From: a bacterium
GTDB taxonomy: Bacteria; Ratteibacteria; UBA8468
Reading direction: 5' to 3'
Length of the DNA stretch: 48,119 nt
NCBI GenBank assembly: GCA_030672255.1
Contig: DAOVGU010000137.1
Coordinates: 1 to 48,119, forward strand
The notes below the pieces were generated by a model. It was not told the DNA's origin and ran no database searches. It worked only from the letters and a program-made list of their open reading frames with translations. The position numbers were made by a program, and so were the translations under genes. Of the stretch, positions 2,754 through 47,677 are shown piece after piece. Position 1 is the first letter of the stretch; the number at the start of each line of letters is the position of its first letter.

Positions 2754-3608
2754 ATGGGAAATTTGGTCAGAGAACCGGTGGTGGCGGGGCAGTTTTATCC
2801 CGCAGAGCCCGAGCAGCTGAGAAAAGCTCTTTCCTCCTATCTGGAGAGGAACTTACACCCCCACCTACCTCCTCCCCCCTTGAGGGGGAGGATAAAGGAG
2901 GGGGGAGGGGCAAAAGGAATTATTGTTCCCCATGCCGGTTATATTTACTCCGGACCGGTTGCCGGAGCAGTTTACTCCAGAATCATTCTGCCGGAGACAA
3001 TCATTCTTCTCGGGCCAAACCATACCGGGGTGGGCAAACCATTTTCTCTAATGAGGGAAGGAATCTGGAATACACCCCTCGGTAAGGTAGAGATATAAAC
3101 CTCAGTGGCTGAGGAAATTTTGAAGGATTCCCATTATCTTGAAGAGGATTTTCTGGCACATCAAGATGAGCATTCCTTAGAGGTGCAAATCCCTTTCCTC
3201 CAGGTTCTCTCTTCAGAATTTAAGATTATTCCCATTATCATCTCAGGAGGAGATGGCAAAACTCTGATGGCAATCGGAGAGGAGATTGCCGGGACATTGT
3301 TGAGATTAAAGAAAAACGTTCTTCTCATTGCCAGTTCAGATATGACCCATTATGAATCAGAAAAATCAGCCCGGGAAAAGGACGATTATGCTCTGGAGGC
3401 AATCCTGAAGTTAGATGAGGAGGAGTTACTAAAAAGGGTGGCAGAAAAAAATATCTCTATCTGCGGAGTAACTCCGGTAGTGGTGATGATTACCGCAGTC
3501 AAGAGGTTAGGAGCAAAAAAGGCAGAGTTAGTAAAATATCAGACAAGTGGGGCGGTAACCGGTGATTTAACCCAGGTAGTAGGGTATGCGGGCGTGATTG
3601 TAAGATAG
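2754..3608 (+). pseudogene. MEMO1-family / AmmeMemoRadiSam system protein B, interrupted by one in-frame TAA at 3096-3098
   Basis: ORFs 2754-3098 and 3105-3608 are in the same frame. Joined, they read VAGQFYP..IVPHAGYIYSG..LGPNH..WNTPLGKVEI*TSVAEEIL..EHSLEVQIPFLQ..SSDMTHY, a full-length Memo fold. Confidence 0.75.
2856..2910. repeat. C-rich/G-rich nested palindrome (family R3), in frame in the Memo gene
   Basis: CACCCCCACCTACCTCCTCCCCCCTTGAGGGGGAGGATAAAGGAGGGGGGAGGGG is translated as HPHLPPPPLRGRIKEGGG. A near-identical non-coding copy lies at 24361-24406. Confidence 0.85.
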
Positions 3609-3719
3609 GCAAGGAGGTTTACTTCAGCGGCACGCTCGCAGAGATGCTCGCTATGAGATGCCTCCTCTATCCTGGCTTCATACGGCATCTAATGCACGCT
3701 TAAAGTAAACCTCCTTGCC
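3608..3719. mobile_element. MITE-like element with 15-bp perfect TIR GGCAAGGAGGTTTAC
   Basis: GGCAAGGAGGTTTAC at 3608-3622 and its reverse complement at 3705-3719. The internal CTTCAGCGGCACGC module is shared with the junction elements. Confidence 0.65.
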
Positions 3720-3736
3720 TCGGTGTTAAAATATCA

Positions 3737-4699
3737 ATGCTAATCGTCATTCTCCTTCTTGCTCTCTATATTGGTTGGAACATTGGTGCCAATGATGCCG
3801 CCAATTGTGTCGGAGCGGATGTTGGCTCCGGCAAGATGAGCCTGAAGGAAGGCATCATCATCACCAGCGTTTTCAGCCTTTTAGGTGCTTTTCTCCTCGG
3901 CTCTCATGTTACCAAGACAATCGGCAAGGGAATTGTACCTCTGCATAAGTTAGACCCATCCCTTGCGCTTCTTGTTGCTCTTGCTGCTATTTTTGCGGCT
4001 GCTCTCTCGATTACCGTTGCTACCTATAAAAAACTGCCTGTTTCCACCTCCCATGCCATTGTTGGTTCAGTAGCCGGAGCAGGCCTTGCTCTTGGGGCGC
4101 CGGTAATCTGGAGCAAATTAACTGATATCTTTCTCTGCTGGCTCTTAACACCTTTAAGTGCAGGTCTCCTTAGTTATTTTCTCTATTTTTTTGCCAAAAG
4201 GCTTTTTCCAAAAATAGTTCCCGCTCACTGGCAGGAGCGGTTTTTGAGAGGATTGATCCTTTTGACGAGTGCCTATATGGCATTTATTTGGGGAGCGAAT
4301 GATGTGGCTAATGCCAGTGGTCTTCTTGTAGGCATCGGAAAAATAGATTTTTTTCCCGCAGCCATTATCTGTTCTGCGGCGATCATTATCGGTATCTGCA
4401 CCTGGGGGTATAAGGTTATTGAGACAGTTGGCTTCAGGATTACCCATCTTGCTCCTTTGATGACTGTTGTTGTAGAGATTGCGGCGGCAATCAATATTAA
4501 TCTTTTTACTCTTTTTGGCATTCCAGTCTCCACATCCCATTCCATTATTGGTGCAGTAGTTGGAGTGAGTCTAATTGAAGGGATAAAGACGGTGAATAAA
4601 AGAATCGTCAGGGATATAGTCATCGCCTGGTTGGCTACACCCTTAATTGCGGGACTATTTGCCTTTTTTATTTTGAAAACAGTGTTGCTGTTTAAATAA
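3737..4699 (+). CDS. pit: inorganic phosphate transporter, PiT family
   Basis: 320 aa, polytopic. It has the duplicated GANDAAN / GANDVANA signature of PHO4/PiT. Confidence 0.9.
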   Translation: MLIVILLLALYIGWNIGANDAANCVGADVGSGKMSLKEGIIITSVFSLLGAFLLGSHVTKTIGKGIVPLHKLDPSLALLVALAAIFAAALSITVATYKKLPVSTSHAIVGSVAGAGLALGAPVIWSKLTDIFLCWLLTPLSAGLLSYFLYFFAKRLFPKIVPAHWQERFLRGLILLTSAYMAFIWGANDVANASGLLVGIGKIDFFPAAIICSAAIIIGICTWGYKVIETVGFRITHLAPLMTVVVEIAAAININLFTLFGIPVSTSHSIIGAVVGVSLIEGIKTVNKRIVRDIVIAWLATPLIAGLFAFFILKTVLLFK

Positions 4700-4745
4700 A
4701 ATGTAACCACGAATGAACACGAATAAAACAATTCAGGAAGATGTA

Positions 4746-4899
4746 GTCATTGCGAGCGTGAGCGAAGCAATCCGACGGAGTCGTTGCGAGGAGTGAAACG
4801 ACGAAGCAATCTCAAAGAAGCGAGGGATTGCCACACTCACTTTGTTCGCTCGCAATGACAAGATGAGATTGCCACGTCGCTAATGCTCCTCGCAATGAC
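4746..4899. repeat. family R1 composite element (empty-site version)
   Basis: Almost identical to 5643-5814, but carries ACT where the other copy carries the 19-nt palindrome. Confidence 0.85.
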
Positions 4900-4961
4900 A
4901 CCTTGTGTCAGTTTCTATTCGTGTGTATTCGTGGATAAATAAAAAGCGAAGGGGGGGAATT

Positions 4962-5630: not shown

Positions 5631-5642
5631 GATTGCAACCGC

Positions 5643-5814
5643 GTCATTGCGAGCCTGAAGGCGAAGCAATCCGACGGAGTCGTTGCGAGGAGTGAAACGA
5701 CGAAGCAATCTCAAAGAAGCGAGGGATTGCCACACTCCCCCGTATTTAATACGGGGTTGTTCGCTCGCAATGACAAGATGAGATTGCCACGTCGCTAACG
5801 CTCCTCGCAATGAC
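5643..5814. repeat. family R1 composite element with nested R2 palindrome at 5737-5756
   Basis: GTCATTGCGAG...CCACACTC-CCCCGTATTTAATACGGGG-TTGTTCGCTCGCAATGAC...CTCGCAATGAC. Confidence 0.85.
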
Positions 5815-5831
5815 ATCTGTGGTTAGTTTTT

Positions 5832-18065: not shown

Positions 18066-18107
18066 AAGTTCAATAGGATGCAGATTTTCACAGATGACAG
18101 TGCAACT

Positions 18108-18242
18108 GTCATTGCGAGGCCGAAGGCCGTGGCAATCCCTCACTTCTATGGGATTGCTTCGTCGTTCCACTCCTCGCAACGACTGCGTCGGATTGCTTCG
18201 CTTCGCTCGCAATGACAAGCGAGGGACCTCGCTCACAATGAC
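18108..18242. repeat. family R1 composite element
   Basis: The first ~55 nt are near-identical to 24249-24303. An extra CGTCGTTCCACTCCTCGCAACGACTGCGTCGGATTGCTTCG module is nested inside. Confidence 0.85.
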
Positions 18243-18262
18243 CATGTCACTTTAAACTATCT

Positions 18263-21378: not shown

Positions 21379-22260
21379 TTATCTGCGTATATCTGTGTTA
21401 ATCTGTGGTTGCATAATATTTAAAATATTCATCAGCATTACCTCTAAGGAAAGCTTAGGGTTAGCGCTCTGATGAATCTGGGCACGAGTTTCGATAATGA
21501 GATCGATGAGTTCCATAATCTGAGAGGAGTTTAACTCCTCATCAATCAGCTCTAAATTACTCAATAATTTCCTTTCTGCCCCATTTTTAAGGAGAAGAAG
21601 GTCACGATAAAAAGATAGGAGCAATTTTAGAGAGGAATCTAGCCCCCCACCAATATTGGTGGGGGGTAAAATTTCCTCCGCCATAGCAAAAATCTCCGAA
21701 GGATTCTGCAAAGAAAGGGAATTAATATCTGTGATCAGGCTTCTCTGAAGTTCTCTCTCCTCCTTTTTGAGAACTCTCCTACCAGTAGAAAACATAATCT
21801 TTTGACACCGGGAGACGATTGTAGGAAGAAACTCCTTATCACTTTTGGCAATCAGGAGGAGTGTCGTATACTCAGGCGGTTCCTCCAGGGTCTTCAGGAA
21901 GGCATTGCTTGCTTCTTCATTTAACCTCTCGACCTCAAAGATATAGACCCTTTTCTTCCCCAGAAAAGGTTTAAGCCACATCTCTTTCTGAATTTCCCTT
22001 AGTTCATCGATCGTAAGAGAGGAGACCACACCTTCTCCCCTCAACCATTTCACATCGGGATGGATAAAGGATCCAATCTTCAAGCAGTTTTCGCAGCTAT
22101 TGCAGGGAAAATTGCTCTTCTCGCATTCGATCGCTTTGGCAAAGTTTAAAGCGACCTTTTCTTTATCCTCAGAAGAGCCAGCAAAGAAGAGATAGGCAGA
22201 ACTCAAGCGTCCCTTAGCGATCGAATTTTTCAGATAGCGCTCGATTTTTTCGGTTTCCAT
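21379..22260 (-). CDS. holB: DNA polymerase III subunit delta'
   Basis: 293 aa. It has an AAA+-like N-terminus, Zn module CNSCENC, and TLEEPP. The last ~11 codons (QPQINTDIRR) are repeat-derived. Confidence 0.85.
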   Translation of the reverse strand: METEKIERYLKNSIAKGRLSSAYLFFAGSSEDKEKVALNFAKAIECEKSNFPCNSCENCLKIGSFIHPDVKWLRGEGVVSSLTIDELREIQKEMWLKPFLGKKRVYIFEVERLNEEASNAFLKTLEEPPEYTTLLLIAKSDKEFLPTIVSRCQKIMFSTGRRVLKKEERELQRSLITDINSLSLQNPSEIFAMAEEILPPTNIGGGLDSSLKLLLSFYRDLLLLKNGAERKLLSNLELIDEELNSSQIMELIDLIIETRAQIHQSANPKLSLEVMLMNILNIMQPQINTDIRR

Positions 22261-24220: not shown

Positions 24221-24232
24221 TATTTTAACCAC

Positions 24233-24436
24233 AGATTAACACAGGAATGTCATTGCGAGGCCGAAGGCCGTGGCAATCCCTCACTTCTATGGGATTGCTT
24301 CGCTTCGCTCGCAATGACAGTTGCATTGTCATCTGCGTTTATCTGCGTCCAATAAATTACACCCCCACCTACCTCCCCCCTTGAGGGGGAGGATTGAGGA
24401 GAGGGGTAACTTTGAAATTCCATACGATAAATTATT
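24233..24436. repeat. intergenic mosaic of five repeat families in series
   Basis: In order: AACCACAGATTAACACAG; R1 (24249-24318); ATCTGCGTTTATCTGCG; R3 (24361-24406); the 21-mer TTGAAATTCCATACGATAAAT (24412-24432). Confidence 0.85.
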
Positions 24437-25534: not shown

Positions 25535-26617
25535 TTACAGAATCAGCATCGCATCGCCATAACTGGCGAAGCGGTATTTTCCTTTGATTGCCTCAGAATA
25601 GGCTCTCTGAATTAATTCCTTCCCGGCAAAGGTAGCGACTAAAAGAAAGAGGGTGGTAGATGGAAGATGAAAATTGGTAAGCATGCTATCTGTAATCTTA
25701 AATCTATAGCCGGGGTAGATATATAGTGAGGTCCAGCCTTTCCTGGGCTCTACATAACCATCGGTGTTGGCTGTTGTTTCTAAAACCCGCACACTGGTTG
25801 TTCCTACCGCAATGATTCTTTTGCCCTCTTTTTTAGTCTTATTAATCAATTTAGCTGCACCAGGAGGAAGTTCAAAATATTCCTTTTCCATCTGATGCTT
25901 TTCAATATCTTCCTCTCTGATTGGCTTAAAGGTGCTCCAGCCAATATTTAAGGTAACAAAGGTGATGCTCACTCCTTTTTCTTTCACTCTCTGCAAAAAT
26001 CCTTCAGTAAAATGTAAGCCAGCGGTAGGAGCCGCAATTGCTCCATTTCTTTTGCTATAGACGGTCTGGTAATAAGTCATATCAATAGGTAAGGGTTTTC
26101 GCTTAATGTAGGGAGGTAGAGGAATCTCGCCAATCTTCTTCAATAGCTCCTCTATCCTTCCCGGATAAAGAAACTCTACTTTGTACTTCCCATTCTTCTT
26201 TTCTAAGATTTTTGCTTTTATTCCTTCATTGAAGAAGATTGTTGAGCCAACCCTTATTCTTGGTCTGGCCAATGCTTCATAGATACTTTTCCCCTCACCT
26301 CTATCCGGGGGATGCACTCCCTCAAGGGGAGTGGAGCCCCCGGAAATTAGGCGGGGGTGTAACCTACGAAGCACCAAAAGTTCTGCCCTTCCTCCGGTTT
26401 CCTTTTTTCCTTTGAGCCGGGCTGGAATCACCTTGGTATTATTTAAGACCAAAAGGTCCCCTGAGGAAAGATAGTCGAGAAGAGCAGGAAAGATGCGATG
26501 CTCAATCCTTTTCTCCTTTCTTTTGATGACCAATAGCCTTGCCCTTTCTCTCTTTAAAAGTGGCATCTGGGCAATTAGCTCCTTTGGCAGGAAGTAGTCA
26601 AAATCGGAAAGTCTCAT
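25535..26617 (-). CDS. queA: S-adenosylmethionine:tRNA ribosyltransferase-isomerase
   Basis: 360 aa. Motifs are MRLSDFDYFLPKELIAQ...PTAGLHFT...SYGDAMLI. Confidence 0.95.
   Translation of the reverse strand: MRLSDFDYFLPKELIAQMPLLKRERARLLVIKRKEKRIEHRIFPALLDYLSSGDLLVLNNTKVIPARLKGKKETGGRAELLVLRRLHPRLISGGSTPLEGVHPPDRGEGKSIYEALARPRIRVGSTIFFNEGIKAKILEKKNGKYKVEFLYPGRIEELLKKIGEIPLPPYIKRKPLPIDMTYYQTVYSKRNGAIAAPTAGLHFTEGFLQRVKEKGVSITFVTLNIGWSTFKPIREEDIEKHQMEKEYFELPPGAAKLINKTKKEGKRIIAVGTTSVRVLETTANTDGYVEPRKGWTSLYIYPGYRFKITDSMLTNFHLPSTTLFLLVATFAGKELIQRAYSEAIKGKYRFASYGDAMLIL
26291..26359. repeat. R3-type triple-nested palindrome in frame in queA
   Basis: Read on the minus strand as (L)HPRLISGGSTPLEGVHPPDRGEG. 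Arms are CACCCCCGCC/GGTGAGGGG, TCCGGGGG/CCCCCGGA, CACTCCCC-TTGA-GGGAGTG. Confidence 0.8.
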
Positions 26618-34468: not shown

Positions 34469-36167
34469 TTTCTCTCTTTAACTTTAAGATAATAAATGTT
34501 GGGGTAATAAATTCAAAAGAACCGCAAAGTTGAAATCTTTTTTGTGGAAAAATTCCCAATAAAGGAGGAATAATTTCAAATCTTTTTATTATTCTAAAAT
34601 CTTTGGAGCTCAAAAGAGAAACGGTAGAATCGTTTACCAATGGCTTTCCAGTGAAAAAGGATAAAGGTTCAAAAAATCCCCAACTATCAGAAATCAGAAT
34701 ATAATAGTCGATACCTTCATCAAGCAATTCTTTTATATTCCCAGCCTTTATTACATACTTATTGGGATTGATAGAAGGCATACGATAAATCACCGGATAC
34801 CTATCCATACCAATTTTTGCTCCTTTGGGAATGTTTTCCTCTATCCAGTAAGAGGCTTCCATTCTGATATCACTATCTTTTGCAATTCGCTCAAAAGAAA
34901 ATGTATAACCAAATGCCACAGTAATAATAGTGAAAAGTAGGATTAATTTAGTAAATATAGATATTTTCCTTTTAAAAATAGATATATCAAAGAAATTCCC
35001 GGCTAAAATTGCTAAAAATGGATAGGCAGGAAGCCCATAAGTCTCGGAACCTAATTTCACTGAGAGCATGAGGAAAATAAAAGGAAGGATTCCAGAAAAG
35101 AGGAAGAATTCCTTAGAGGTATGAAGCCTCAGAGCAAAAAAGATAGAGGCAAATATAAGAAGGAAGAGAAAAGGAGAGATGGCGTAGAGGAACATCGTAA
35201 TCGGATAATAAACAAGAGAATCAAAAAGATGGCAGAAGGAGAATATGTCCACCGCTCCTGCGGTCCAAAAAAGGTCATGCCGGAGACGAGAAAAATGAAT
35301 AAGGGGGTAGGGAGAGGTCAAAAAGAAGGAAAAAATAGTGACAAATCCAGCTACTAAAAGAGGTCTAATTTTTTTTAATCCTCGCTGGCCAATGAAATGA
35401 GCAACAATTATGGGGAAAATAGCAAGAATACCCGGGTATTTGGAACCCATTGCCAGGCCCGCCGCAACCCCACTAAAGATGTAATATTTCAATCTTTTCG
35501 TCTCAATGATAGAGAGGGCAAAATAGAAGGAAAGAATAACCCAAAAGGCCAGAGGAATATCTGGCTTGATGTAATGGGATTGAATAACAAATAAAGGAGT
35601 AACTGCTAAAAACAAGGAGGAAAGAATGCCGACTCTCTCATTATAAATTCTTTTTCCAATAAGGTAGACAAAAAGAATTGTTAAAAGAGCAAAAAGGACA
35701 ACAATATATCTACCCGCCAAATAGATTTTAGCAAACTGTTCGGGATTTTTCAAATAAAAGAAAATATCCTGCTTCAAAGGGGAAAAATGGCAAAGCGAAT
35801 CAAGAAGAATTCCAAAACCTATCTGATAAGCAAAGAACGGGGGATAGATATAGTTTTTAGTATCAAAATCAAATCTTCTGGGATGAATATGGCTAAGATT
35901 TTTTAAGGTATATTCTTCATCAGGATGGTAACTACGTAGAATATCAAAATAGGCAGTAAGTTCGGCAATCTCCTTTTTTTCAGCAGGAGCGATGAATTCT
36001 GACCTCTGCCACTTCCCCTCAGCCAAAACCTTTTTAATCCTCTCTTCAGGCATTTTTCCAACTATTCTTGCCCTTTTCTTGCTGGGTAGACCAAAGCGAA
36101 TTCCATAAAGGTTAAGAAACAGAGAGAGAAACAAAATTAGAACAATAGGAATTTTTTTAATTAACAT
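34455..36167 (-). CDS. GT-C fold membrane glycosyltransferase (GT39/PMT_2-like)
   Basis: 570 aa, polytopic, with a first-loop SYHPDE motif and a C-terminal soluble domain. Confidence 0.7.
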   Translation of the reverse strand: MLIKKIPIVLILFLSLFLNLYGIRFGLPSKKRARIVGKMPEERIKKVLAEGKWQRSEFIAPAEKKEIAELTAYFDILRSYHPDEEYTLKNLSHIHPRRFDFDTKNYIYPPFFAYQIGFGILLDSLCHFSPLKQDIFFYLKNPEQFAKIYLAGRYIVVLFALLTILFVYLIGKRIYNERVGILSSLFLAVTPLFVIQSHYIKPDIPLAFWVILSFYFALSIIETKRLKYYIFSGVAAGLAMGSKYPGILAIFPIIVAHFIGQRGLKKIRPLLVAGFVTIFSFFLTSPYPLIHFSRLRHDLFWTAGAVDIFSFCHLFDSLVYYPITMFLYAISPFLFLLIFASIFFALRLHTSKEFFLFSGILPFIFLMLSVKLGSETYGLPAYPFLAILAGNFFDISIFKRKISIFTKLILLFTIITVAFGYTFSFERIAKDSDIRMEASYWIEENIPKGAKIGMDRYPVIYRMPSINPNKYVIKAGNIKELLDEGIDYYILISDSWGFFEPLSFFTGKPLVNDSTVSLLSSKDFRIIKRFEIIPPLLGIFPQKRFQLCGSFEFITPTFIILKLKRENAAE

Positions 36168-38194
36168 ATAAACCTATATTTAATTAGGGTCCAGACAGCA
36201 ATAAACCAATCCTTCAGCCTGATCTTCTTTCCCTCGGCTACCCCTCTTGGCCTATGGGAAATTGGCACTTCTTTAATCCTTATTCCTCTTTTAGCTACCT
36301 TAGCCGTAACCTCAGGACAGAATTCAAATCCTTTGCATTTTAAATTTAGGCTTTTTAAGAGATTGGCCTCGAAAACCTTATAGCAGGTTGGCTCATCGGT
36401 AATATGGGTCCGATAGAGCAAATTAGCCAAAATGCTCAAGCTTCTGCCACCGAGATAGAAATACCAGCCCGCCAAGGACTTCGGTTTTGAACTCTGACCC
36501 AGGACCCTGGAACCATAAACAACCTTTGTCTCTTCCTTTATTATTGGCTCTACCAACATATAATACTCATCGGGGTTATATTCCAAATCGGCATCCTGGA
36601 TGATGACAATATCCCCAGTCACCTCTTTTAATCCAGTGCGAATTGCAGTTCCCTTTCCATATTTTTTTGGCCGGCTGATAAGCTTAATCTCATTATTGCC
36701 GTCTTTCTGCTTAATAATTTCCTTTAAGACCTCTTTGGTCTTATCGGTAGAACCATCCTCGACAATGATAATCTCCTTCTTTAAATTGACCGCCCTTACT
36801 CTATGGATAATTTCGGCAATCGTTTTTTCCTCATTATAGACCGGCATAATCACAGAGAGTTTCATCTCTTTAACCACAGATGTCATTGCGAGGAGCCTTA
36901 GCGACGTGGCAATCCCTCGCTTCTTTGAGATTGCCACGGCACTTCGTGCCTCGCAACGACTCCGTCGTTTTGAATTTTTAATTGTTCTACACAGCCCTCC
37001 CCCCGCAAGAGCATAAACAAGAGGCATTATGGGAATTCTATACCTGGGAATAGCAAAAAGAAGGCTATGAATAAAAGTAAAATAAAAAATCATTAAGAGA
37101 GGGATAAATAGTTCTTTTCTCTTTTCCTTTAGACAAAGGTATAACCCTGAAAGAAAGAAAAAGAGAAGAATATAGTGGAAGGTAAAGATAAAAGCCTTCT
37201 GTAAATTTTTCCCCTCTAAAACCCTCTTTCCTCCGGGAATCTGAAGCCAAAACCTACCAAATTTCTTTAGACATAACAAAGAATAACCACCGGGATTATT
37301 TTTGATATTCTTTACCCCCTCGGAAAAAAACTTTTTATCTGCATCAATCTGAGAAAGTCCTCTTACCAAATTTTCCTTATCAGAGAGGTTCTTATAATTG
37401 TAGTCTCCATTCCAGGGAAGGTAACTTCCAACCCAGAGGTTAAAACCCCCGCCAGTTCCTACTGGAATAAATTCTTTAAAGACAATGTAATTCCTTACTG
37501 TCCAGGGAAGAATTGTTCCGGCCATTGTCAGAGAAAAAATTACCACAAAAATAAGTTTCTTAAATCTTTTTCTGGGGTACAAAACACCCCCTCCCTTCTC
37601 TTCCCCTCCCTCGAGGGGAGGGGCAAGGGGAGGGTGAAAAAACAATAAGCCAAGTAACAAGAAAAGGGGGAATAGTAAAGTAACTGGCCGGCAAAGGGTT
37701 GAGAATCCCAAAAAAATGCCGGATGCTACCCAATCCCCCCTTTTTTTGCTTTCCAAAGCCTTCATCAGCAATATCACCGCTATTGTCAATAAGAATGTGG
37801 TAAGGGTCTCGGTGAGAATATAGGAGTTTGAGGCAACGAGTGAAGGACAGATAACCGCAGCACCTGCCCCCAAGATAGCAGTTTTTTTATTCTTGAAAAT
37901 TCTCTCTCCAATGAGATAAACAAATAGGCAAATGATTGCCCCTAAAATGCTCTGAATAATCCTTACCGCTAAAAAATTATGTCCAAAAATAAGATAAACA
38001 ATCGCTAAAAAAGATGGATATAAAGGTGCCCGATGTAAATTGATAGAAAATCCTAAACCATTGGCAATATGAAGTGCCATTTTATTATAATCAATGCTAT
38101 CCGGGGCAGAAAGAGGGAAAAGAACAATAAAGATAAAGCGGATAAAAAAAGCAGAGAGAAAAATGAATATCAAGGTTTTCCTTTTATTCACCAC
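36161..38194 (-). CDS. continuous ORF joining a GT-C (ArnT-like) membrane glycosyltransferase to a Dpm1/ArnC-like GT2 domain through an R1 repeat
   Basis: 677 aa. Residues 1-~410 are polytopic. The linker CEARSAVAISKKRGIATSLRLLAMTSVV is the translated repeat. It is followed by MKLSVIMPVYNEEKT..VEDGSTDKT..QDADLEY. Confidence 0.75.
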   Translation of the reverse strand: MVNKRKTLIFIFLSAFFIRFIFIVLFPLSAPDSIDYNKMALHIANGLGFSINLHRAPLYPSFLAIVYLIFGHNFLAVRIIQSILGAIICLFVYLIGERIFKNKKTAILGAGAAVICPSLVASNSYILTETLTTFLLTIAVILLMKALESKKRGDWVASGIFLGFSTLCRPVTLLFPLFLLLGLLFFHPPLAPPLEGGEEKGGGVLYPRKRFKKLIFVVIFSLTMAGTILPWTVRNYIVFKEFIPVGTGGGFNLWVGSYLPWNGDYNYKNLSDKENLVRGLSQIDADKKFFSEGVKNIKNNPGGYSLLCLKKFGRFWLQIPGGKRVLEGKNLQKAFIFTFHYILLFFFLSGLYLCLKEKRKELFIPLLMIFYFTFIHSLLFAIPRYRIPIMPLVYALAGGGLCRTIKNSKRRSRCEARSAVAISKKRGIATSLRLLAMTSVVKEMKLSVIMPVYNEEKTIAEIIHRVRAVNLKKEIIIVEDGSTDKTKEVLKEIIKQKDGNNEIKLISRPKKYGKGTAIRTGLKEVTGDIVIIQDADLEYNPDEYYMLVEPIIKEETKVVYGSRVLGQSSKPKSLAGWYFYLGGRSLSILANLLYRTHITDEPTCYKVFEANLLKSLNLKCKGFEFCPEVTAKVAKRGIRIKEVPISHRPRGVAEGKKIRLKDWFIAVWTLIKYRFIC
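36882..36972. repeat. family R1 element translated as an interdomain linker
   Basis: GTCATTGCGAGGAGCC...GGCAATCCCTCGC...CTCGCAACGACTCCGTCG. There is no stop codon in the host frame. Confidence 0.85.
37585..37636. repeat. R3 nested palindrome in frame in the GT-C domain
   Basis: Read as (F)HPPLAPPLEGGEEKGGGV. The inner hairpin is CCCCTCCC-TCGA-GGGGAGGGG. Confidence 0.85.
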
Positions 38195-39302
38195 CTACCT
38201 CCTCATAGAGATTTAATGTCTCTTTAGCACATCTTTCCCAGGAGAAGAGTTTTGCCCGCTTTATTCCCTTTTCTCTCATCTCCTCGGCTAATTCCTTATT
38301 ACTTAAAACCTTCTCCATTAGCTTTGCCATCTCTTCTGTATCATCGGGATTAACTGAGAGGGCAGCATCTCCTGCTACCTCAGGAAGGGAGGAGATGTTG
38401 GAAGTAATTGCCGGGGTGCCAGAGGCCATCGCTTCCAGAACCGGAAGACCAAACCCCTCGTAAAGGCTGGGGTAGATAAAAAGGGAGGCGCAATTATAGT
38501 AAAGGGGTAATAGTTCCTCGGGTAGATAACCGGTGAAGAAAACCTCTTCCTCCAGCCCCAACCTCTTCACCACCTTATAGATATTCTGGTACTCTTCTCC
38601 CTTTTCTCCCACAATCATTAATCTTTCCTTCCTTCCCTTTTCCCTCATATTTTTGTAGGCCTTGATAAGATTAAGGATATTCTTCCTTTTCTTTAATGTT
38701 CCCACGTAGAGAATGAAGGAATCCAAAATCCGATACTTTCTCCTGAAATCCTGTAAATCTTTTTTCTCAATGGGATGATAGGAGGAATCAATACCTAAGT
38801 TAATTACCGCAATCTTTTCTGAGGGAATATTTAATAATTTCATGGTATCTTTCTTTGTCGCAGAGGAGACGGCAATGATTTTTTCTACTCTCTTTGCTGC
38901 TGCCGGTATCATCCTTTCATAAAAGAGCCTCTTTAAGAGATTATGTTTTTTTGGAAAAAGCAAAAAGAGCATATCATGAAATGTAACGAGAGATTTCCAG
39001 CCAAACCTTACCAAAGGGGTGGTATAGCGTGGAGAATGAAGAAGGTTAATTTTATATCTTTTAAGCAAAAAGGGGAAGGTAATCTGTTCCCAGAGAAGCC
39101 TCAAAGCTCTTGGCATGCTCTTGATGCCGATAAGCCGAAAATTGGCGCCTAACTCGAATCTCCTTACATTCCTCTTCTCTACAAAGATAAAATATTCATT
39201 TTTCCTATCTATAAGGGAGAGGTTGTTGATCAGATTCAGCAAATAAAAACCGGCTCCTCCTAACTTCTCCGGCAGCAGTGTCGCATCAATTCCAATTCTC
39301 AT
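38184..39302 (-). CDS. family 4 (GT-B, group 1) glycosyltransferase
   Basis: 372 aa. The C-terminal motif is [18 protein letters not shown]. Confidence 0.85.
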
Positions 39303-40936
39303 TTATCTGAAGAAAGAATTTGCTTTGCTCCTTCTGCCTCGGGGTCATACATTAGCGCTATTCCGGCCTCTTTTTGCGCAAGATCAAATTCACCTAAATT
39401 AAGGTAGGTGGTTGCCAGAAGCTCGTGTCCCAAAGGATTGAAAGGCAAAAGGGAGACCAAACTTTTTGCCCTTTTTAAGGCTAAGGGGAAATTGCCTTCA
39501 GCAATATCATTGTTCGCATTCTTATAGGTAAGAAAGGAAAAACTTTCCAGATGGACAGAGCCGATTTTCTCCCCTTTCCAGTTATTGACAAAGGAGAAAA
39601 GTAAGAAAAGAACAGAAAGGGCCACTACGACAGGAATGTATTTTCTTCCCTTGACCTTAAAAAAGAGCCAATCAATAAAGAAAGCGGCAAATAGTATTAA
39701 ACACCCTACGGCGGGAAGTCGATAGCGACTGGTAACAAAGAAACCGATGACCCAGATGATATTGCACAAGGTAAAGAAAAATAAAAGAAGAAATTTCCTC
39801 TTACTTAGAGCAAGAAATAGACCAAGGATACCTAAAGGAACGATAAGACCAAAGCCAAACAATGGGAGTTTAAGGGTTTTAGTAATTTTCTGCAAGAGAT
39901 AAATATTTAAGTTCTGGGGCCATTCATATGAGTTGAAAAAGAGCAGAAATTTGTTTCCTTGCAGCCTCCAGAAAACTTTGGAAAAGAGCGGGGCTAAGGG
40001 TTTTTCCGGGGCAATGTAAAGACCGATAGAATCAAGACTATTGCCAATTTTATAGTTGGCCGGTCCATTGGAGCAGATGGGTACAAACTGACCGGATACC
40101 CGCCAATTCCTGATTGTCGCGGGAGAGATAATTATCGCCATCAAAAGAATTACAATCACCCAGGCTAAAAAGGGATGAATACCCCCTCCTTTTTTTCCTC
40201 CCACAAGGGGAGGAAGTAAAAAAGATTTTTTCTCTTCCCCTCTCGCGAGGGGAGAAGAAGAAATTGTTGCTGTTTTCCCCTCCCTTGATGGGAGGGGTTG
40301 GGGAGGGAGAGGGTGGGGGGAAGTTTTCTTGGGATAGAAATATAGTCCAATAAGCAAAAAGGGAAGGAACAATAAAATTGTCGGTTTAACTAAAGCGGAC
40401 AGCCCCATCACCAATCCTACCAGGACCCATCTTTTATAACTTCTTTCCCTTAGCGCCCAATAGATGACAAAGATGAAAAGGATATTTAAAAAGAGAATTA
40501 GAGTATCACTTAAGAGTGTTGTGGAATAAAAAATAAATGGCCGATAAAATCCAGCAAAGAGACAGGCAAGAAGCCCCACTCTTTCATTAAACAACCATTT
40601 GCCTAAAAGAAATAAGAGGAGACAAAGGAGGGTATCCAAGAGAATCTGAATGAAACCAACAGCAAAGTAACTATGGCCAAAACCTTTATAAATTGCCGCA
40701 ACAAAGTATGGGTAGCCTGGAGCCATATAAAAGACCTTACCATCTCCCGCCCAGGGATTTTTTACAAGCTTTCCTGCCCAATTATCAAATGTCCTCTGGT
40801 CATATTTGGTCATCAGACCTGCATTAAAGAAAACACTCTCGCGAAACTCAAGAAGATAAGAAAGCCTCAAAAAAAAGGCAAAAATAAGGATGAGACCTAA
40901 ATAAAGGTAAGGAGATTTGGGGTCAGGTCTCAACAT
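39299..40936 (-). CDS. GT-C fold membrane glycosyltransferase with C-terminal TPR repeats
   Basis: The ATG at 40934-40936 (MLRPDP) lies inside the R5 TIR. The N-terminus is polytopic and ArnT-like. The tail is TPR-like (ATTYLNLGEFDLAQKEAGIALMYDP). Confidence 0.75.
   Translation of the reverse strand: MLRPDPKSPYLYLGLILIFAFFLRLSYLLEFRESVFFNAGLMTKYDQRTFDNWAGKLVKNPWAGDGKVFYMAPGYPYFVAAIYKGFGHSYFAVGFIQILLDTLLCLLLFLLGKWLFNERVGLLACLFAGFYRPFIFYSTTLLSDTLILFLNILFIFVIYWALRERSYKRWVLVGLVMGLSALVKPTILLFLPFLLIGLYFYPKKTSPHPLPPQPLPSREGKTATISSSPLARGEEKKSFLLPPLVGGKKGGGIHPFLAWVIVILLMAIIISPATIRNWRVSGQFVPICSNGPANYKIGNSLDSIGLYIAPEKPLAPLFSKVFWRLQGNKFLLFFNSYEWPQNLNIYLLQKITKTLKLPLFGFGLIVPLGILGLFLALSKRKFLLLFFFTLCNIIWVIGFFVTSRYRLPAVGCLILFAAFFIDWLFFKVKGRKYIPVVVALSVLFLLFSFVNNWKGEKIGSVHLESFSFLTYKNANNDIAEGNFPLALKRAKSLVSLLPFNPLGHELLATTYLNLGEFDLAQKEAGIALMYDPEAEGAKQILSSDK
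40182..40320. repeat. three tandem R3-type hairpins in frame in the GT-C/TPR gene
   Basis: Read as SPHPLPPQPLPSREGKTATISSSPLARGEEKKSFLLPPLVGGKKGGG. Hairpin loops are ATCA, GCGA and TTGT. Confidence 0.85.
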
Positions 40937-41004
40937 TTGACAAAAATACAAAAACTTTTAATTTACCATTATCAAACTTTGTCAAATGTTGAGACCTGAC
41001 CCCT
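40919..41004. mobile_element. second copy of the R5 TIR element
   Basis: It has the same 24-bp TIRs as 13844-13976 and a different, shorter core. It contains the stop of the upstream SDR gene and the ATG of the downstream GT-C gene. Confidence 0.75.
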
Positions 41005-41964: not shown

Positions 41965-42102
41965 GTCATTGCGAGCCCAAAGGGCGTGGCAATCCTTCCT
42001 GCTGTCATTCCCGTGTAAACGGGAACCTATTATTAGATTCCTGCTTCCGCAGGAATGACAAACTCCAACGGAGTTGACTGAAGTATTTACCCTCGCAATG
42101 AC
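41965..42102. repeat. R1 element with a nested GTCATTCC...GGAATGAC unit (42004-42059)
   Basis: GTCATTGCGAGCCC...GGCAATCC / GTCATTCCCGTGTAAACGGGAAC...ATTCCTGCTTCCGCAGGAATGAC / ...CTCGCAATGAC. Confidence 0.8.
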
Positions 42103-42116
42103 ATCTTTAATGAGTT

Positions 42117-43325
42117 TTACCTAATCAGGTCCGCGTATTTTTCTCTTTCCCGGATGACTCTATCCTTAGCTTGGGAAACAAGAATCTCCGGGAGTCTCAG
42201 GCGACTATTGTAGTTTGAGGACATAGAAAAGCCATAGGCGCCGGTATCCTTAATGGCTAAAAAATCCCCTTCCTTTAAGGAAAGGGGTAGCCTCCTATTT
42301 TTCCCCAAGAAATCACCGGATTCGCAAATCGGACCGACAATGTTTCCGATAAAACTCTTCCCCGAGGGTTTTTTCAGGGGAACAATTTCGTGATAGGCTC
42401 CATAAAGGGATGGCCGGAGGAGGTCATTGAGTCCGGCATCAACCACAACAAACTTTCCTTTCAGATAAAGTACGCGAGTAACCAAAATGCCAGAGCCTCC
42501 CACAATGTATCTTCCCGGTTCAAAAATGATTTTTGCTCTCAGCTCCTTCAGGAGGGAAATGATGCTTATAGCAAAATCTTTGATGGAAGGGACCTTTTTC
42601 TCATATTGGATGGGGAAACCACCACCAATATCAAGGACGTCTACCTTAATTCTTTCCTTTCTGATAAAATTTATTAACTTCTTGATTGCTATTTGGTAGA
42701 CTTCGGGGAAGGTGATTTGAGAGCCAAGATGGATGTGAAGCCCCAAAATATTGATTTTGGGAAAAGAAGCTTTGTCCTTAAAGATTTTTGCCACCTCTTT
42801 CCAGCCAATTCCGAACTTAGATTCCTTCCTGCCCGTGGCAACATACCGATGCGTCTTAGGCTCAACATCAGGGTTGACCCTGAGGTTGCAGTTTACTCTT
42901 CTATTAAGCTTGGATGCGATTTTATTGATTAATTTTAATTCCGAAGCCGATTCAACGTTGAATAAATAAATATTCTTTTTTATTGCCTCCTTAATTTCCT
43001 CTTCCCTTTTGCCGACCCCGGCAAAGACAATTTTTTCCGGCGGGATCCCGGCCTTTAAGGCCAAAAATAGTTCTCCCAGGGAAACGATGTCCGCCCCAGC
43101 CCCAAGATTTTTTAAAATTTTTAAAAGGGAAAGATTGGAGTTTGCCTTCAGGCTATAGCAGATGAGAGGAAAAAGCGTAGAAAACGCTTTTTCAAATTTT
43201 CTGTACTGACTGCAAATAGAATTTTTGCCATAAAGATAACAAGGGGTGCCGATCTTTTCCGCAATCTCGCCTACCTTTACCCCTTCGCAATAAAGACTAT
43301 TTTTATAATAAAAAAAAAGTTCCAT
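42117..43325 (-). CDS. lysA: diaminopimelate decarboxylase
   Basis: 402 aa. It has the PLP-Lys context CYSLKANS, GGGF, and CESGD. Confidence 0.92.
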   Translation of the reverse strand: MELFFYYKNSLYCEGVKVGEIAEKIGTPCYLYGKNSICSQYRKFEKAFSTLFPLICYSLKANSNLSLLKILKNLGAGADIVSLGELFLALKAGIPPEKIVFAGVGKREEEIKEAIKKNIYLFNVESASELKLINKIASKLNRRVNCNLRVNPDVEPKTHRYVATGRKESKFGIGWKEVAKIFKDKASFPKINILGLHIHLGSQITFPEVYQIAIKKLINFIRKERIKVDVLDIGGGFPIQYEKKVPSIKDFAISIISLLKELRAKIIFEPGRYIVGGSGILVTRVLYLKGKFVVVDAGLNDLLRPSLYGAYHEIVPLKKPSGKSFIGNIVGPICESGDFLGKNRRLPLSLKEGDFLAIKDTGAYGFSMSSNYNSRLRLPEILVSQAKDRVIREREKYADLIR

Positions 43326-43957
43326 TACTTATACCGGGAAAGGTCAACCTCAAACCTCAGTTCCCTCTCCTCCTCCCATCTACCTCTGATAAGGATGACG
43401 ATAATCTTTTCCTTGGGTTTTATTTTCTCATAAGGAAAAAAACCTTTGACAACCGCTTCGTAGCCTGGACTGTTTGGCCAGGTTTCTCTTGGTTTACCAA
43501 GTGAGTCGCTCTCTGTCTTTGTGGGAGCAACAACCCCCAATTCTCTCCTTCCTCTTATTGAACGGGAGGTGATAATTACTAAGGAATACTCCCGGGCAAA
43601 ATCAATTCTATCCCCTACGGTATGGATTTCAATGAGAAAATCCTTTTTTGCTAAGATTGCTTTTTGCTCCCCTTCGGAAAGTTTCCCTCCCTTTTCCTTC
43701 GCTTCGCCAGCTGCCAAAGCCAGATCAACATATTTGGTGACAAGGTAGCCATACTCATTGATGCTGGTGCTACAGCGAAACTTATATTTTCTTAAGATGC
43801 GAGATCCCTCCTCCCGCTCTCCCCAACCGATTGCCTGCCCTACCTCAGATTTACTCAAATTTACCTCAATCGCATGAACCTGAGGAATGAGGAAGAAGAA
43901 AATAAGCATTAAATATATAAAATTTCTCTTTTGAACGCAGATAAACGCAGATAACAT
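43325..43957 (-). CDS. secreted hypothetical protein
   Basis: Start chosen at MLSAFICVQKRNFIYLMLIFFFLIPQVHA (signal-peptide-like). Its stop overlaps the lysA ATG (TAATG). No family was recognised. The upstream ORF extension is repeat sequence. Confidence 0.55.
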   Translation of the reverse strand: MLSAFICVQKRNFIYLMLIFFFLIPQVHAIEVNLSKSEVGQAIGWGEREEGSRILRKYKFRCSTSINEYGYLVTKYVDLALAAGEAKEKGGKLSEGEQKAILAKKDFLIEIHTVGDRIDFAREYSLVIITSRSIRGRRELGVVAPTKTESDSLGKPRETWPNSPGYEAVVKGFFPYEKIKPKEKIIVILIRGRWEEERELRFEVDLSRYK

Positions 43958-43988
43958 CAGGATTAAGTTAAAAATCAAAGACGACGTA

Positions 43989-44185
43989 GTCATTGCGAGT
44001 GAACAACCCCGTATTAAATACGGGGGAGCGTGGCAATCCCATCTTGTCATTGCGAGTGAACAAAGTGAGCGTGGCAATCCCTCGCTTCTTTGAGATTGCG
44101 GAGCCTGTTCCGAGCCTGTCAATGAGATTGCTTCGGGATTTTATCCCTCGCAATGACAGGCGAAGAATCCCATGCCTCGCAATGA
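43989..44185. repeat. array of R1 units, the first carrying the R2 palindrome (44007-44026)
   Basis: GTCATTGCGAGTGAACAA[CCCCGTATTAAATACGGGG]GAGCGTGGCAATCCC is followed 20 nt later by the same unit with AGT at that point. Confidence 0.85.
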
Positions 44186-44194
44186 CACTTCGTG

Positions 44195-45562: not shown

Positions 45563-45575
45563 TGCTTTGTTAAAT

Positions 45576-45604
45576 ATTATACCAAACTCTTTGATAAAGG
45601 GCAA
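45576..45604 (-). promoter_or_regulatory. candidate argH promoter
   Basis: The minus strand reads TTGCCC (45604-45599), a 17-nt spacer, TATAAT (45581-45576), then 13 nt without an SD, then the ATG. Confidence 0.45.
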
Positions 45605-45618
45605 GTTTATGCTATAAT
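45591..45618 (+). promoter_or_regulatory. candidate topA promoter, leaderless geometry
   Basis: TTGATA (45591-45596), a 16-nt spacer, TATAAT (45613-45618), then 7 nt, then the ATG at 45626. Confidence 0.5.
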
Positions 45619-45625
45619 CAAAAAT

Positions 45626-47677
45626 ATGGTAAATTCTTTGGTTATTGTGGAATCGCCAGCAAAAGCAAAGACCATCTCTCGATTTTTAGGTAGAGATTTT
45701 CGGTTCTCTGCCTCCTTGGGACACATTCGAGACCTTCCCGCCCATAAGTTTGGGGTTGATATCCAGAAGGATTTTGAACCTACGTATGAGGTCCCTCCCG
45801 ATAAAAAAAAGATAGCGCGACAACTTCTTCTCGCGGCAAAAAATAGTGGAGATATCTACTTAGCTACCGATGAAGATCGAGAGGGCGAGGCGATTGCCTG
45901 GCATATTGCTACTCTTTTGAAGAAGCCTTTAGGGGAGGTCAAAAGGGTTGTCTTCCACGAAATTACTAAAAGTGCAATTCAGGAGGCCTTCAGCCATCCA
46001 CGCGGGATTAACCTTTCCCTAGTCAATGCCCAGCAGGCACGCCGCATTTTAGATCGGGTAGTTGGCTACCAATTAAGCCCCTTTCTCAGTGAGAAAATGC
46101 ACCAGAGAGGTCTTTCCGCCGGCAGGGTGCAATCGGTGGCTTTGCGGATGATTGCGGAAAGGGAAAAGGAGATTGAGAAATTTCATCCTCAGGAATACTG
46201 GAGCATAAAAGCCAATTTACGCCCCCACCCAAATCCCTCCCCCACAAGTGGGGAGGGAAGAAGGGAGGGGGGAGAAGGAAATTCCTCCTTTTTTGCAATT
46301 CTCTCTTCCATTGAAGGCAAAAAAATCCCCCAATTAGGTATCAAAACTAAAGAGGAGGCCGAGAATATCACCTCAGATTTAGAGGGCTCTTCATTTATCG
46401 TGGAGAGGCTCAAGAAAGAGGAAAAAAGGCGTCATCCTTTTCCTCCCTTCACAACCAGCACTTTACAACAGGAGGCCTCTTATAGATTAAGATTTTCTGC
46501 CAAAAAGACGATGCGGGTTGCCCAGCAACTCTACGAAGGAATTCAACTGGAGAAAGGTCAGGTTGGGCTCATTACCTATATGAGAACGGATTCCCTTTCC
46601 ATTTCCAACCTCGCTCAGAAAGAAGCTCTCTCCTACGTCAAAAATGAATTTGGAGAAGATTATGCACCTGAGAGGCCAAATTTTTATAAAACTAAAGCAA
46701 AGGGAGCGCAGGAAGCACATGAAGCAATTCGCCCCACCTCCGTTCTTCGCACCCCTGAGGCCATCAACAAGTTCTTAAATCCGGACCAGAACAAAATCTA
46801 TACCCTTATCTGGAATAGGTTTGTTGCCAGTCAGATGACACCGGCAATCTTTGACACCGTGACTGTTGAAATCAAGGCGGACAAATACCTCTTTTGCGCA
46901 AAGGGCGAAACATTAAAGTTTCCCGGATATAAAAGAGTATATTCCGAAGTAAAAAAGGAGCAGGAGACCATCCTTCCGGACCTGCAGGAAAAGGAGAAAC
47001 TTATTTTAGAGAAACTTATTCCTGAGCAACATTCCACCAAGCCACCAAGCCGTTACACCGAGGCAACCCTGATTAAAACGATGGAGAAGTATGGAATTGG
47101 CCGACCCTCCACCTATGCCCCGACAATCAGTACAATCCTGGATAGAAAATATGTGGAATTGGAAAAGCGTCATTTCAAACCCTTGCCCCTGGGGGTTACC
47201 GTCAATGAAATTCTGATAAAATACTTCTCGGAGTTAATTAAAGTTGACTTTACTGCCAGAATGGAGGAAAACTTAGATGAGATTGCTGCCGGCCAGCAGG
47301 AATGGGTGAAGGTATTAAATGACTTTTACCGGCCATTCTCGGAGAAATTAAGGGTTGCCTCTAGCGAACCAAGTCCACCACAGAACTTTGGCGGAAGGGA
47401 AAAGAGGAGACCCCCTGCACAAGAGACGGACGAGAAATGTCCAAAATGTGGCGCAGTTCTTCTTCTGCGGGAGGGCAAATACGGAAAATTCTTGGGCTGC
47501 AGTACCTTCCCTAAGTGTAAGTATACCAGGCCCTCAAATCAGGAAAAATCTTCTGCTCAGGAGACGGGTGAGAAATGTCCAAAATGTGGCTCTCCTCTTC
47601 TTCTGCGGGAGGGGAGGTACGGAAAGTTCTTCGGCTGCAGCAACTTTCCTAAGTGCAGGTATGTAAAGAAATGCTGA
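45626..47677 (+). CDS. topA: DNA topoisomerase I
   Basis: 683 aa. It has Toprim (VIVESPAKAKTI, DEDREGE), the active-site Tyr context GLITYMRTDS, and two C-terminal C4 zinc ribbons. Confidence 0.96.
   Translation: MVNSLVIVESPAKAKTISRFLGRDFRFSASLGHIRDLPAHKFGVDIQKDFEPTYEVPPDKKKIARQLLLAAKNSGDIYLATDEDREGEAIAWHIATLLKKPLGEVKRVVFHEITKSAIQEAFSHPRGINLSLVNAQQARRILDRVVGYQLSPFLSEKMHQRGLSAGRVQSVALRMIAEREKEIEKFHPQEYWSIKANLRPHPNPSPTSGEGRREGGEGNSSFFAILSSIEGKKIPQLGIKTKEEAENITSDLEGSSFIVERLKKEEKRRHPFPPFTTSTLQQEASYRLRFSAKKTMRVAQQLYEGIQLEKGQVGLITYMRTDSLSISNLAQKEALSYVKNEFGEDYAPERPNFYKTKAKGAQEAHEAIRPTSVLRTPEAINKFLNPDQNKIYTLIWNRFVASQMTPAIFDTVTVEIKADKYLFCAKGETLKFPGYKRVYSEVKKEQETILPDLQEKEKLILEKLIPEQHSTKPPSRYTEATLIKTMEKYGIGRPSTYAPTISTILDRKYVELEKRHFKPLPLGVTVNEILIKYFSELIKVDFTARMEENLDEIAAGQQEWVKVLNDFYRPFSEKLRVASSEPSPPQNFGGREKRRPPAQETDEKCPKCGAVLLLREGKYGKFLGCSTFPKCKYTRPSNQEKSSAQETGEKCPKCGSPLLLREGRYGKFFGCSNFPKCRYVKKC
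46222..46275. repeat. R3 nested palindrome in frame in topA
   Basis: CCCCCACCCAAATCCCTCCCCCACAAGTGGGGAGGGAAGAAGGGAGGGGGGAG is read as (R)PHPNPSPTSGEGRREGGEG. Confidence 0.85.

Follow-up and report, generated by a model that had tools for sequence, protein, structure and literature searches.

A palindromic repeat of about 51 nt that lies between genes and in frame within genes in a clade of Candidatus Omnitrophota genomes

Introduction

Palindromic DNA that lies between genes and also in frame within intact housekeeping genes has been described as Rickettsia palindromic elements (RPEs; Ogata et al., 2000, as outlined in PMC10969869 and PMC3733652), and this type of phenomenon is known since 2000. 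Here, we describe a comparable case in a contig of 48,119 nt (DAOVGU010000137.1 of assembly GCA_030672255.1; hereafter, the window, meaning the whole stretch of DNA analyzed). A palindromic element with runs of C and G is present in one intergenic spacer and in frame in five genes: that for AmmeMemoRadiSam system protein B (hereafter, Memo), queA, two glycosyltransferase family C genes (GT-C1 and GT-C2), and topA. [quoted passage not shown]

Mobile palindromes and hairpin-dependent elements are known from other settings. The insertion sequence IS608 inserts 3′ of TTAC, recognizes sub-terminal hairpins in single-stranded DNA (ssDNA), leaves no target duplication, and excises precisely. In yeast mitochondrial DNA, the GC clusters are short, GC-rich mobile palindromes in an AT-rich genome; some of them lie within genes, where they are in frame (as in var1) or bypassed, and ribosomal bypass has been described for the GC-rich 'byp' elements of the yeast mitochondrion.

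The intragenic GTAG/CGTC REPs reported by Di Nocera et al. (2013, PMC3733652), which occur for example in Opitutus terrae and R. conorii, are stem-loops of 20–40 nt with an unpaired end tag, often arranged as dimers in opposite orientation. Some are in frame and code for 20–30 amino acids, many are located in genes for DNA replication and repair, and they occur in several phyla, including the Planctomycetes–Verrucomicrobia–Chlamydiae (PVC) group (PMC3733652). In PARCELs (palindromic amphipathic repeat coding elements), intragenic repeats arranged in tandem encode amphipathic modules of surface proteins (PMC2996958). QMITE1 of Coxiella is MITE-like, QMITEs being longer and having terminal inverted repeats (PMC5896051).

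Results

One palindromic family at six loci

Six loci in the window, in Memo, the tgt/tmk spacer, queA, GT-C1, GT-C2, and topA, belong to a single family (Table 1). Read with its polarity, the consensus is (A/G)A(n)-TTA^CACCCCCACC-TATCT-CCTCCCCCC-TTGA-GGGGGAGG-ATnGA-GGnGAGGGGG, where ^ marks the left junction. Between the C that follows TTA and the last base of the G-run, both included, the core measures 47–52 nt, with a modal length of 51 nt (17 codons). In its architecture, an inner C/G hairpin is enclosed by two outer arms, first a C-box and then one rich in G; the inner stems are 8–9 bp with loops of 4–7 nt, and the outer arms are imperfect inverted repeats of ~9–10 nt. The initial annotation had given the core as YCTCCCC-N4-GGGGAGR, but this pattern has no match even with one mismatch, and both run and loop lengths vary. 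The segments and peptides it listed do lie where it had placed them, in the genes and frames it gave, and Pfam identifies the hosts as Memo, Queuosine_synth, two PMT_2, and TopA proteins.

We aligned 16 copies from the window and related genomes and built a profile hidden Markov model (HMM) from 15 copies, three of which are window copies (Memo, spacer, and topA). HMM E-values for these three seed copies are circular, and their place in the family rests on the nucleotide alignment, in which 15 copies from three genomes are ~85–95% identical across 51–54 nt. Perfect hairpins with a C-rich 5′ arm are present at 11 loci of the window, whereas 30 first-order Markov shuffles average 2.0. As RNA, the copies have predicted minimum free energies of −28 to −47 kcal/mol.

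The Memo copy reads TTA^CACCCCCACC-TACCT-CCTCCCCCC-TTGA-GGGGGAGG-ATAAA-GGAGGGGGG(AGGGG), with the translation L-HPHLPPPPLRGRIKEGGG. The intergenic copy at 24357 had been described as nearly identical to it, and the two indeed agree at 47 of 50 aligned bases, with one additional 3-nt indel. The flanks of the intergenic copy, ATAAA...TAACTTTGAAATTCCATAC, recur around two copies from other loci (L114 and L102) in unrelated contexts; because these three copies have longer flanks in common, there is at least one subfamily that is longer than the palindrome. In the syntenic relative L003 (GCA_004196255.1), the gap between tgt and tmk is only 19 nt. The GT-C1 copy is ambiguous in polarity because it is a near-perfect palindrome, and the composite GT-C2 copy holds hairpins at 40195–40215, 40236–40253, and 40277–40297.

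Copies inside and outside genes intermix, a point that the initial annotation had suggested checking: the same nucleotide element occurs at unrelated loci, both here and in sister genomes. There, it is in frame in an alanyl-tRNA synthetase (AlaRS), a PfkB-like kinase, and, twice, a heptosyltransferase, and antisense but in frame in a formate-dehydrogenase-like protein; these hosts were named by reading the sequences, not by family search.

Table 1. Copies of the repeat, a possible relative, and the host genes in the window
Feature	Position	Strand	Evidence and remarks
Memo copy	2853..2910 (HMM match 2853-2905)	+	E=1e-17, seed copy
Intergenic copy, tgt/tmk spacer	24357..24425 (core 24357-24406)	+	E=3e-16, seed copy
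queA copy, three nested layers	26290..26362	-	E=5e-7; residues 87-111, HPRLISGGSTPLEGVHPPDRGEGKS
GT-C1 copy	37584..37638 (match 37584-37634)	.	E=1e-4 on +, 1e-3 on -; HPPLAPPLEGGEEKGGG(VLYP)
GT-C2 composite copy	40182..40320 (best HMM part 40182-40218)	-	Three parts, E=2.5e-3, 0.12, 2.3
topA copy	46217..46271	+	E=2e-11, seed copy; 51-nt insert, residues 199-215, RPHPNPSPTSGEGRREG
holB palindrome, possible relative	21643..21666	-	(TTA)CCCCCCACC-AATATT-GGTGGGGGG; perfect 9-bp stem; read PPTNIGGG
Memo host gene (AmmeMemoRadiSam system protein B)	2754..3608	+	Pfam PF01875 matches both halves; interrupted by TAA
queA host gene	25535..26617	-	Pfam PF02547 (Queuosine_synth), E=8e-125
GT-C1 host gene	36161..38194	-	Pfam; one open reading frame joining PMT_2 and GT2 domains
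GT-C2 host gene	39299..40951	-	Pfam PMT_2; 75% identical to L003 orthologue
topA host gene	45626..47677	+	Pfam Toprim, Topoisom_bac, Zn ribbons

Filled and empty alleles of the host genes

The window is a gene-dense contig with a G+C content of ~42%. Its QueA and TopA proteins have their best matches in metagenome-assembled genomes (MAGs) named Candidatus Omnitrophica/Omnitrophota, and the genome PFWI01, labelled Ratteibacteria, is syntenic with it at 72–77% nucleotide identity. Among such relatives the segments are not conserved in sequence and position; the closest orthologues of queA, Memo, GT-C1, and topA lack them precisely. For queA, one orthologue that is 85% identical (P0002, from GCA_023128075.1) and six others run uninterrupted through ...LHRLE-ENIYEAL..., where the window gene is longer by 66 nt (22 codons); in another orthologue, P0003, the copy is shorter and shares both ends with that of the window, and no exact match to the window QueA protein is on record. 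Seven Memo orthologues at 76–86% identity are without 14 amino acids at this position, and the L003 orthologue of GT-C1 is without 20. At the GT-C2 site, L003 has a single unit, SPSPTPPVKGGKEGGG, and the window protein is 31 amino acids longer. For topA, alleles P0126–P0129 are empty, and P0124, P0125, the window, P0122, and P0123 are filled, with inserts of 14 to 33 residues. The possibility that the empty sites are scars of deletion was rejected, since distant orthologues (queA, topA, and Memo) and Protein Data Bank (PDB) homologues are just as long as the empty alleles.

The inserts lie at tolerant positions. The initial annotation had placed the queA and topA segments in variable loops, and the QueA structures of B. 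subtilis and T. maritima, like the PDB homologues of TopA, are gapped at the insert. Structure prediction agrees: in the AlphaFold model of QueA (mean predicted local distance difference test [pLDDT] score 84), residues 89–108 fall below a pLDDT of 50 between the strands 77–85 and 112–118, and in that of TopA (mean 86), residues 204–218 do so between the strands 190–200 and 222–229. Both GT-C inserts directly follow the PMT_2 domain, by its Pfam boundaries, at what we take to be a loop between hydrophobic helices. At the GT-C1 locus we also observe a repeat at 36872–36970, read as ...CEARSAVAISKKRGIATSLRLLAMT..., that fuses the GT-C (PMT_2) and GT2 frames into an open reading frame (ORF) of 677 amino acids (36161–38194); L003 has two separate genes there, with a gap of 62 nt.

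Every insert has a net length divisible by three, no genic copy closes the host frame, and sense orientation prevails among the genic copies. Of the six possible frames, the main frame of the element and three more are free of stops. Open frames and lengths in multiples of three suggest that the inserts are translated as Pro/Gly loops. The proposal of the initial annotation that repeat DNA, also found outside genes, sits in frame in Memo, queA, the two GT-C genes, and topA is supported, with translation as a prediction and with Memo as a possible pseudogene. In Memo, an in-frame TAA, at 3096–3098, replaces a Glu codon (GAA) found in seven of seven close orthologues; apart from it, Memo is 86% identical to the orthologue P0241, and the TAA could be explained by recent loss of the gene's function (a pseudogene), by read-through at this site, or by an error of assembly.

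The Memo stop codon bears on the idea that the inserts are absent from the mature proteins, being removed from the mRNA, bypassed by the ribosome, or carried by decaying pseudogenes. Very stable hairpins such as these could in principle promote ribosomal bypass, by analogy with byp. Against this stand the open host frames, the lengths in multiples of three, and the stop-free main and additional frames of the element; moreover, apart from the inserts, queA, topA, and both GT-C genes are intact and conserved (Pfam and orthologue alignments), and neither intron-like nor take-off and landing features were seen. We regard absence from the proteins as highly improbable.

Junctions and a putative target site

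In window Memo, queA, and topA, the insert starts right after a native Leu codon, TTA. The same left junction is seen in holB, the copy at 24357, and GT-C2 of L003. It is not universal: the GT-C1 copy and the window GT-C2 copy lack TTA at the left junction, the topA copy of locus L119 follows TTG, and some empty sites also have TTG (queA of L003).

Comparison with empty alleles outlines a candidate target. The empty Memo site of L118 reads TTA^GAAAAGGAA (GAT TTA^GAA AAG GAA), the empty queA site of L001 TTA^GAAGAAAAT, and the empty topA sites of L008 and L120 TTA^GAGAAAGAA and TTA^GCGAAAGGA (AAT TTA^GAG AAA GAA; TTA^GCG AAA GGA). TTA^GARRA thus marks the empty site in three unrelated genes, and TTAGARRA has a background of 3.6e-4 per position in the relatives; its presence in three of three genes lies far beyond chance, even for a motif that was defined after the sites had been seen. 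The GT-C1 site, TTC^AGAAAA, keeps the purine-rich right side but not TTA. Since the empty sites read TTAG, not TTAC, the C after TTA belongs to the element, and the left motif is at most NTTA. No target-site duplication was found in the filled/empty comparisons of Memo, queA, topA, and GT-C1.

On the other side, 5–25 nt 3′ of the G-run, GRAATTMC is present in 7/14 copies (background 0.3%) and KRAATT in 11/14 (4.7%), with copies counted by eye. In topA, the downstream motif of this GRAATTMC/KRAATT type is native to the target.

Patchy occupancy and growth at existing copies

With the insert masked, neighbor-joining trees of the host proteins reveal a patchy occupancy: the inserts of P0003 (queA) and P0125 (topA) are nested among empty relatives. 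Such a pattern implies either repeated insertion at the same site or several clean losses. We also considered a recombination tract around the topA insert of L119 and rejected it, the flanks being no more similar to the window than the rest of the gene.

Several copies have grown. The topA insert of L007 has an additional 30-nt unit of C-box and hairpin, bounded by 7-nt direct repeats (CCCCACC); the window queA copy has an additional layer, CCGGGGG...CCCCCGG, vs L002; and in GT-C2, ~84 nt with two extra hairpins lie between the inner hairpin and the right arm of the older single unit. For secondary growth of this kind, slippage or template switching may play the larger part.

Such growth raises the question of whether the segments arose in place throughout, by slippage or template switching of quasi-palindromic, low-complexity DNA, with no movement between loci. 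Nested and tandem growth at existing copies, of which the CCCCACC-bounded unit is an example, fits this view, as does the finding of neither a transposase nor a target duplication. The holB palindrome looks like a minimal version; it resembles the outer arms of the family alone and adds four codons compared with the L003 orthologue, yet it has no match to the family HMM, and its membership is uncertain. (Elsewhere in HolB [21379–22260], at residues ~230–246, there are 17 extra residues, RKLLSNLELIDEELNSS, vs L003, with no recognized relation to a repeat.) What speaks against an origin in place is that near-identical 50-nt copies at unrelated loci and in different genomes have the non-palindromic segments TATCT, TTGA, and ATnGA in common, and that three copies in unrelated contexts have extra flanks in common. 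Local expansion therefore cannot explain the family, though it may explain the secondary growth, and as an account of the whole we judge it quite unlikely.

At four-fold degenerate sites in distant pairs, bases are identical at 12/14 positions inside the inserts vs 175/304 outside. The excess is suggestive only, and would fit either constraint at the nucleotide level or recent arrival.

A wider class of C-box hairpins

We scanned one genome per species with a pattern that requires TTAC, a scan that is biased toward TTAC by design. Matches occur in more than 10 phyla, at least; the full nested palindrome, among the matches listed, is found only in the relatives PFWI01 and DAOWFY01. Scans without TTAC, using the pattern CCCCCACC-N-CCTCCCCC-N-GGGGGAGG, covered JGI metagenomes and IMG/VR, and a looser class of C-box plus C/G hairpin proved very abundant across bacterial phyla. 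We rejected TTAC as a tag of the whole class: TTACA precedes the C-box in 0 of the 280 matches listed, and this start is specific to the subfamily of the Omnitrophota and their relatives. In the wider class, again among the matches listed, the base before the C-box is usually A, often in TCA, giving the start (T)CA-CCCCCACC. Spacers and loops of the class are heterogeneous, and inverted pairs and arrays occur that resemble REP dimers. We observed one such array on an IMG/VR contig classed as viral (L158, 6700–7060), with five C-box hairpin units in alternating orientation within 1.5 kb, similar to arrays of bacterial interspersed mosaic elements (BIMEs) or REPs. The full Omnitrophota-type element has no match in IMG/VR, and carriage by phages is not supported.

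The wider class also enters genes. Its units, flanked on either side by Pfam domains, lie in frame in the class II ribonucleotide reductase NrdJ, HypF, an AddA/UvrD-like helicase-nuclease, and HrpB, at loci (L104, L072, L080, and L116) of alphaproteobacterial, betaproteobacterial, and Methylomirabilis origin; several of the proteins have 2–3 units. Searches of Rfam, at the gathering threshold for the window and 18 loci and at an E-value threshold for two regions, returned only tRNA, riboswitches, and sub-threshold noise off the motif. A literature search by sequence string gave nothing relevant, and plasmid BLAST for annotation gave two unannotated matches only.

The breadth of the class bears on whether the hairpins are selected cis-elements (signals for pausing or co-translational folding, mRNA stabilizers, protein-binding sites, or switches between G-quadruplex [G4] and i-motif), with the protein loop as a by-product. 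Abundance over many phyla, the very stable predicted structures, and the higher apparent conservation of synonymous sites inside inserts are all in keeping with a cis-acting role. The G-strand of GC-rich versions reads GGGGGAGGGTTAGGGTGGGGG, a canonical four-tract G4 motif, and one copy from Leptolinea is followed by a T-run, as in a terminator. Yet the inserts are missing from close orthologues, the functions of the hosts are unrelated, neither a common position nor a neighbor gene recurs, no Rfam family matches, and the AT-richer variants lose their G4 potential. As a substitute for a mobile repeat, selected cis-elements seem to us unlikely; they complement that reading more than they replace it, and function and mobility are not mutually exclusive.

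A broader proposal would see the 51-nt element as the local form of a pan-bacterial super-family of frame-neutral C-box and C/G hairpin modules that home to short sites (here TTA^GARRA), repeatedly enter the same codon position of orthologues, and are moved by a conserved trans-acting, possibly housekeeping, enzyme. We hold this to be speculative and more probably wrong than right by a good distance. If true, the super-family would be a general generator of Pro/Gly loop insertions (QueA, TopA, AlaRS, NrdJ, HypF, and helicases).

Other repeats in the window

Several further repeat families of the window have no counterpart in syntenic L118 and L003. One is a repeat of ~260 nt, at 1880–2141(+) and 17008–17288(−), whose copies are 73% identical overall and ~90% in the core. 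One copy separates mlaE and mlaF, two genes that in L003 overlap; syntenic L118 is without the other, and Rfam has no match. The hairpins at 2028 and 17109, which the initial annotation had counted as non-coding copies of the C-box family, lie within this separate repeat and were rejected as members: that at 2028 has no HMM match, and that at 17109 has E=7.2.

Another family is the 'PVFNTG' palindrome, CCCC(G/T)(G/T)ATTWAAT(A/C)(A/C)GGGG, with seven copies at 5738, 7419, 10311, 13118, 18407, 44007, and 47995. It is in frame in DnaB (18407, ...EEITDPVFNTGEGIAEE...) and in the ORF 9785–10660, and the ORF 43325–44122 has a third copy in its 5′ end, which is filled with repeats. Repeats of the form GTCATTGCGAG...CTCGCAATGAC (2619–2711, 4746–4900, 5643–5815, 18108–18217, 24249–24320, 41965–42103, 43989–44187, and 47977) occupy most intergenic gaps and lengthen the 5′ ends of the ORFs 17289–18245 and 43325–44122; as syntenic L118 is without these insertions, the genome is heavily invaded by several repeat families. 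The AACCGCAGATACACACAGATGAACAC... family, at 21313–21410 and 24226–24341, forms imperfect inverted repeats beside tRNA-Leu and within the tgt/tmk spacer. At 40919–40944 and 40978–41003, a 26-nt inverted repeat, GGGGTCAGGTCTCAACATTTGACAAA, which is perfect and has a 33-nt spacer, spans the start of GT-C2 and the end of an epimerase gene.

Discussion

Taken together, the comparisons favor a short palindromic repeat that has probably moved between loci in this clade, mobility being suggested here by comparison of genomes only. On this account, the palindromic element would enter intergenic and genic sites, the genic ones after a Leu codon, with no duplication. Genic inserts would be transcribed and translated as disordered loops, first Pro-rich and then Gly-rich, situated at the tips of β-hairpins (QueA and TopA) or after the PMT_2 domain (GT-C, presumably between helices). 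Selection would keep only harmless insertions, that is, those that are frame-neutral, stop-free, and flexible Pro/Gly segments, and existing copies would attract further hairpin modules to give nested or tandem composites. Filling of the same codon position in different lineages would then reflect repeated site-specific insertion or precise loss. If the inserts are translated, peptides that span the junctions, such as ...KANLRPHPNPSPTSGEGR... and ...RRLHPRLISGGSTPLEGVHPPDR..., would be expected.

As to the mover, we can offer only a guess, held with low confidence: a trans-acting enzyme on ssDNA hairpins, for example a transposase of the HUH (histidine-hydrophobe-histidine), single-tyrosine (Y1) class, of the IS200/IS605 or the REP-associated tyrosine transposase (RAYT) type. 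The guess is prompted by ends that form hairpins, a left junction that is fixed, the clean presence or absence of the element, and the finding of no duplication. Microhomology-mediated template switching is an alternative. No parent insertion sequence with matching ends was found in the loci examined.

A number of points weigh against a mobile repeat. The window contains no transposase, and a tblastn search of the 2.75 Mb of loci examined for an IS200/IS608-type Y1 TnpA found none, which is a weak negative. All-against-all BLAST of the ORFs within 3 kb of 109 matches revealed no recurrent neighbor, only housekeeping genes. There is no target duplication or footprint to fix a mechanism; the target-site motif was defined after inspecting three or four sites, and 12–25% nucleotide divergence between the compared genomes blurs the junctions. 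The Memo gene has a stop codon, and translation is predicted from the reading frames. The excess of conservation at four-fold sites rests on 14 sites. Finally, the cross-phylum class was chosen by our own patterns, and part of it could be convergent.

The family, its target preference, and its tie to the widespread class of C-box hairpins appear undescribed in the literature searched. In-gene 'selfish DNA', a matter of Rickettsia and a few genomes rich in REPs, is extended by it to an uncultivated phylum related to the PVC group, to which the C-box class adds many phyla. Because filled and empty alleles of topA and queA (essential) coexist among close relatives, they allow tests of site choice, precise excision, and the cost of a disordered 17-residue loop. 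There is a practical side as well: repeats lengthen ORFs, fuse neighboring genes, and seed spurious 'hypothetical proteins', and masking them would improve gene calls in MAGs.

Among known systems, RPEs are similar in behavior, a resemblance drawn from descriptions and not from consensus sequences. As far as those descriptions go, both are found in frame at tolerant positions of unrelated intact genes and also between genes, with no linked transposase; the RPE inserts reportedly occupy places compatible with the protein surface. However, RPE-1 is described there as ~100–150 bp long, restricted to Rickettsia, and with its own consensus, whereas the present element is 51 nt long, has C/G runs, and belongs to the Omnitrophota; it also has a fixed left junction after a Leu codon and the target TTA^GARRA. 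With PARCELs and QMITE1 it has in common that palindromic or MITE-like DNA is translated, here by prediction, within host ORFs. It differs from MITEs proper in its length (47–52 nt vs 70–300 bp), its arms (~9–10 nt vs terminal inverted repeats of 15–30 bp), and the absence of duplication.

The yeast GC clusters are organellar, with other sequences and a target in AT-rich spacers with TAG duplication, and no relationship is implied. The IS200/IS605 elements are likewise built on hairpins and show no target duplication, clean presence or absence, and a fixed left junction, which is seen here at several copies (TTA plus the element's C, giving TTAC). However, the empty sites here read TTAG and not TTAC, the ends form one nested palindrome instead of separate left and right hairpins, and neither tnpA nor tnpB was found in the fetched loci. 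REPs are close in form, being short, GC-rich stem-loops that are repeated, as here with six copies in the window and more in sister genomes. The tag, however, is a C-box, (TTA)CACCCCCACC, with the consensus start TTAC-ACCCCCACC and no GTAG or CGTC at either end; no RAYT link was found in the loci searched; and the stems are C/G homopolymer-like, whereas CGTC stems start with A-T pairs.

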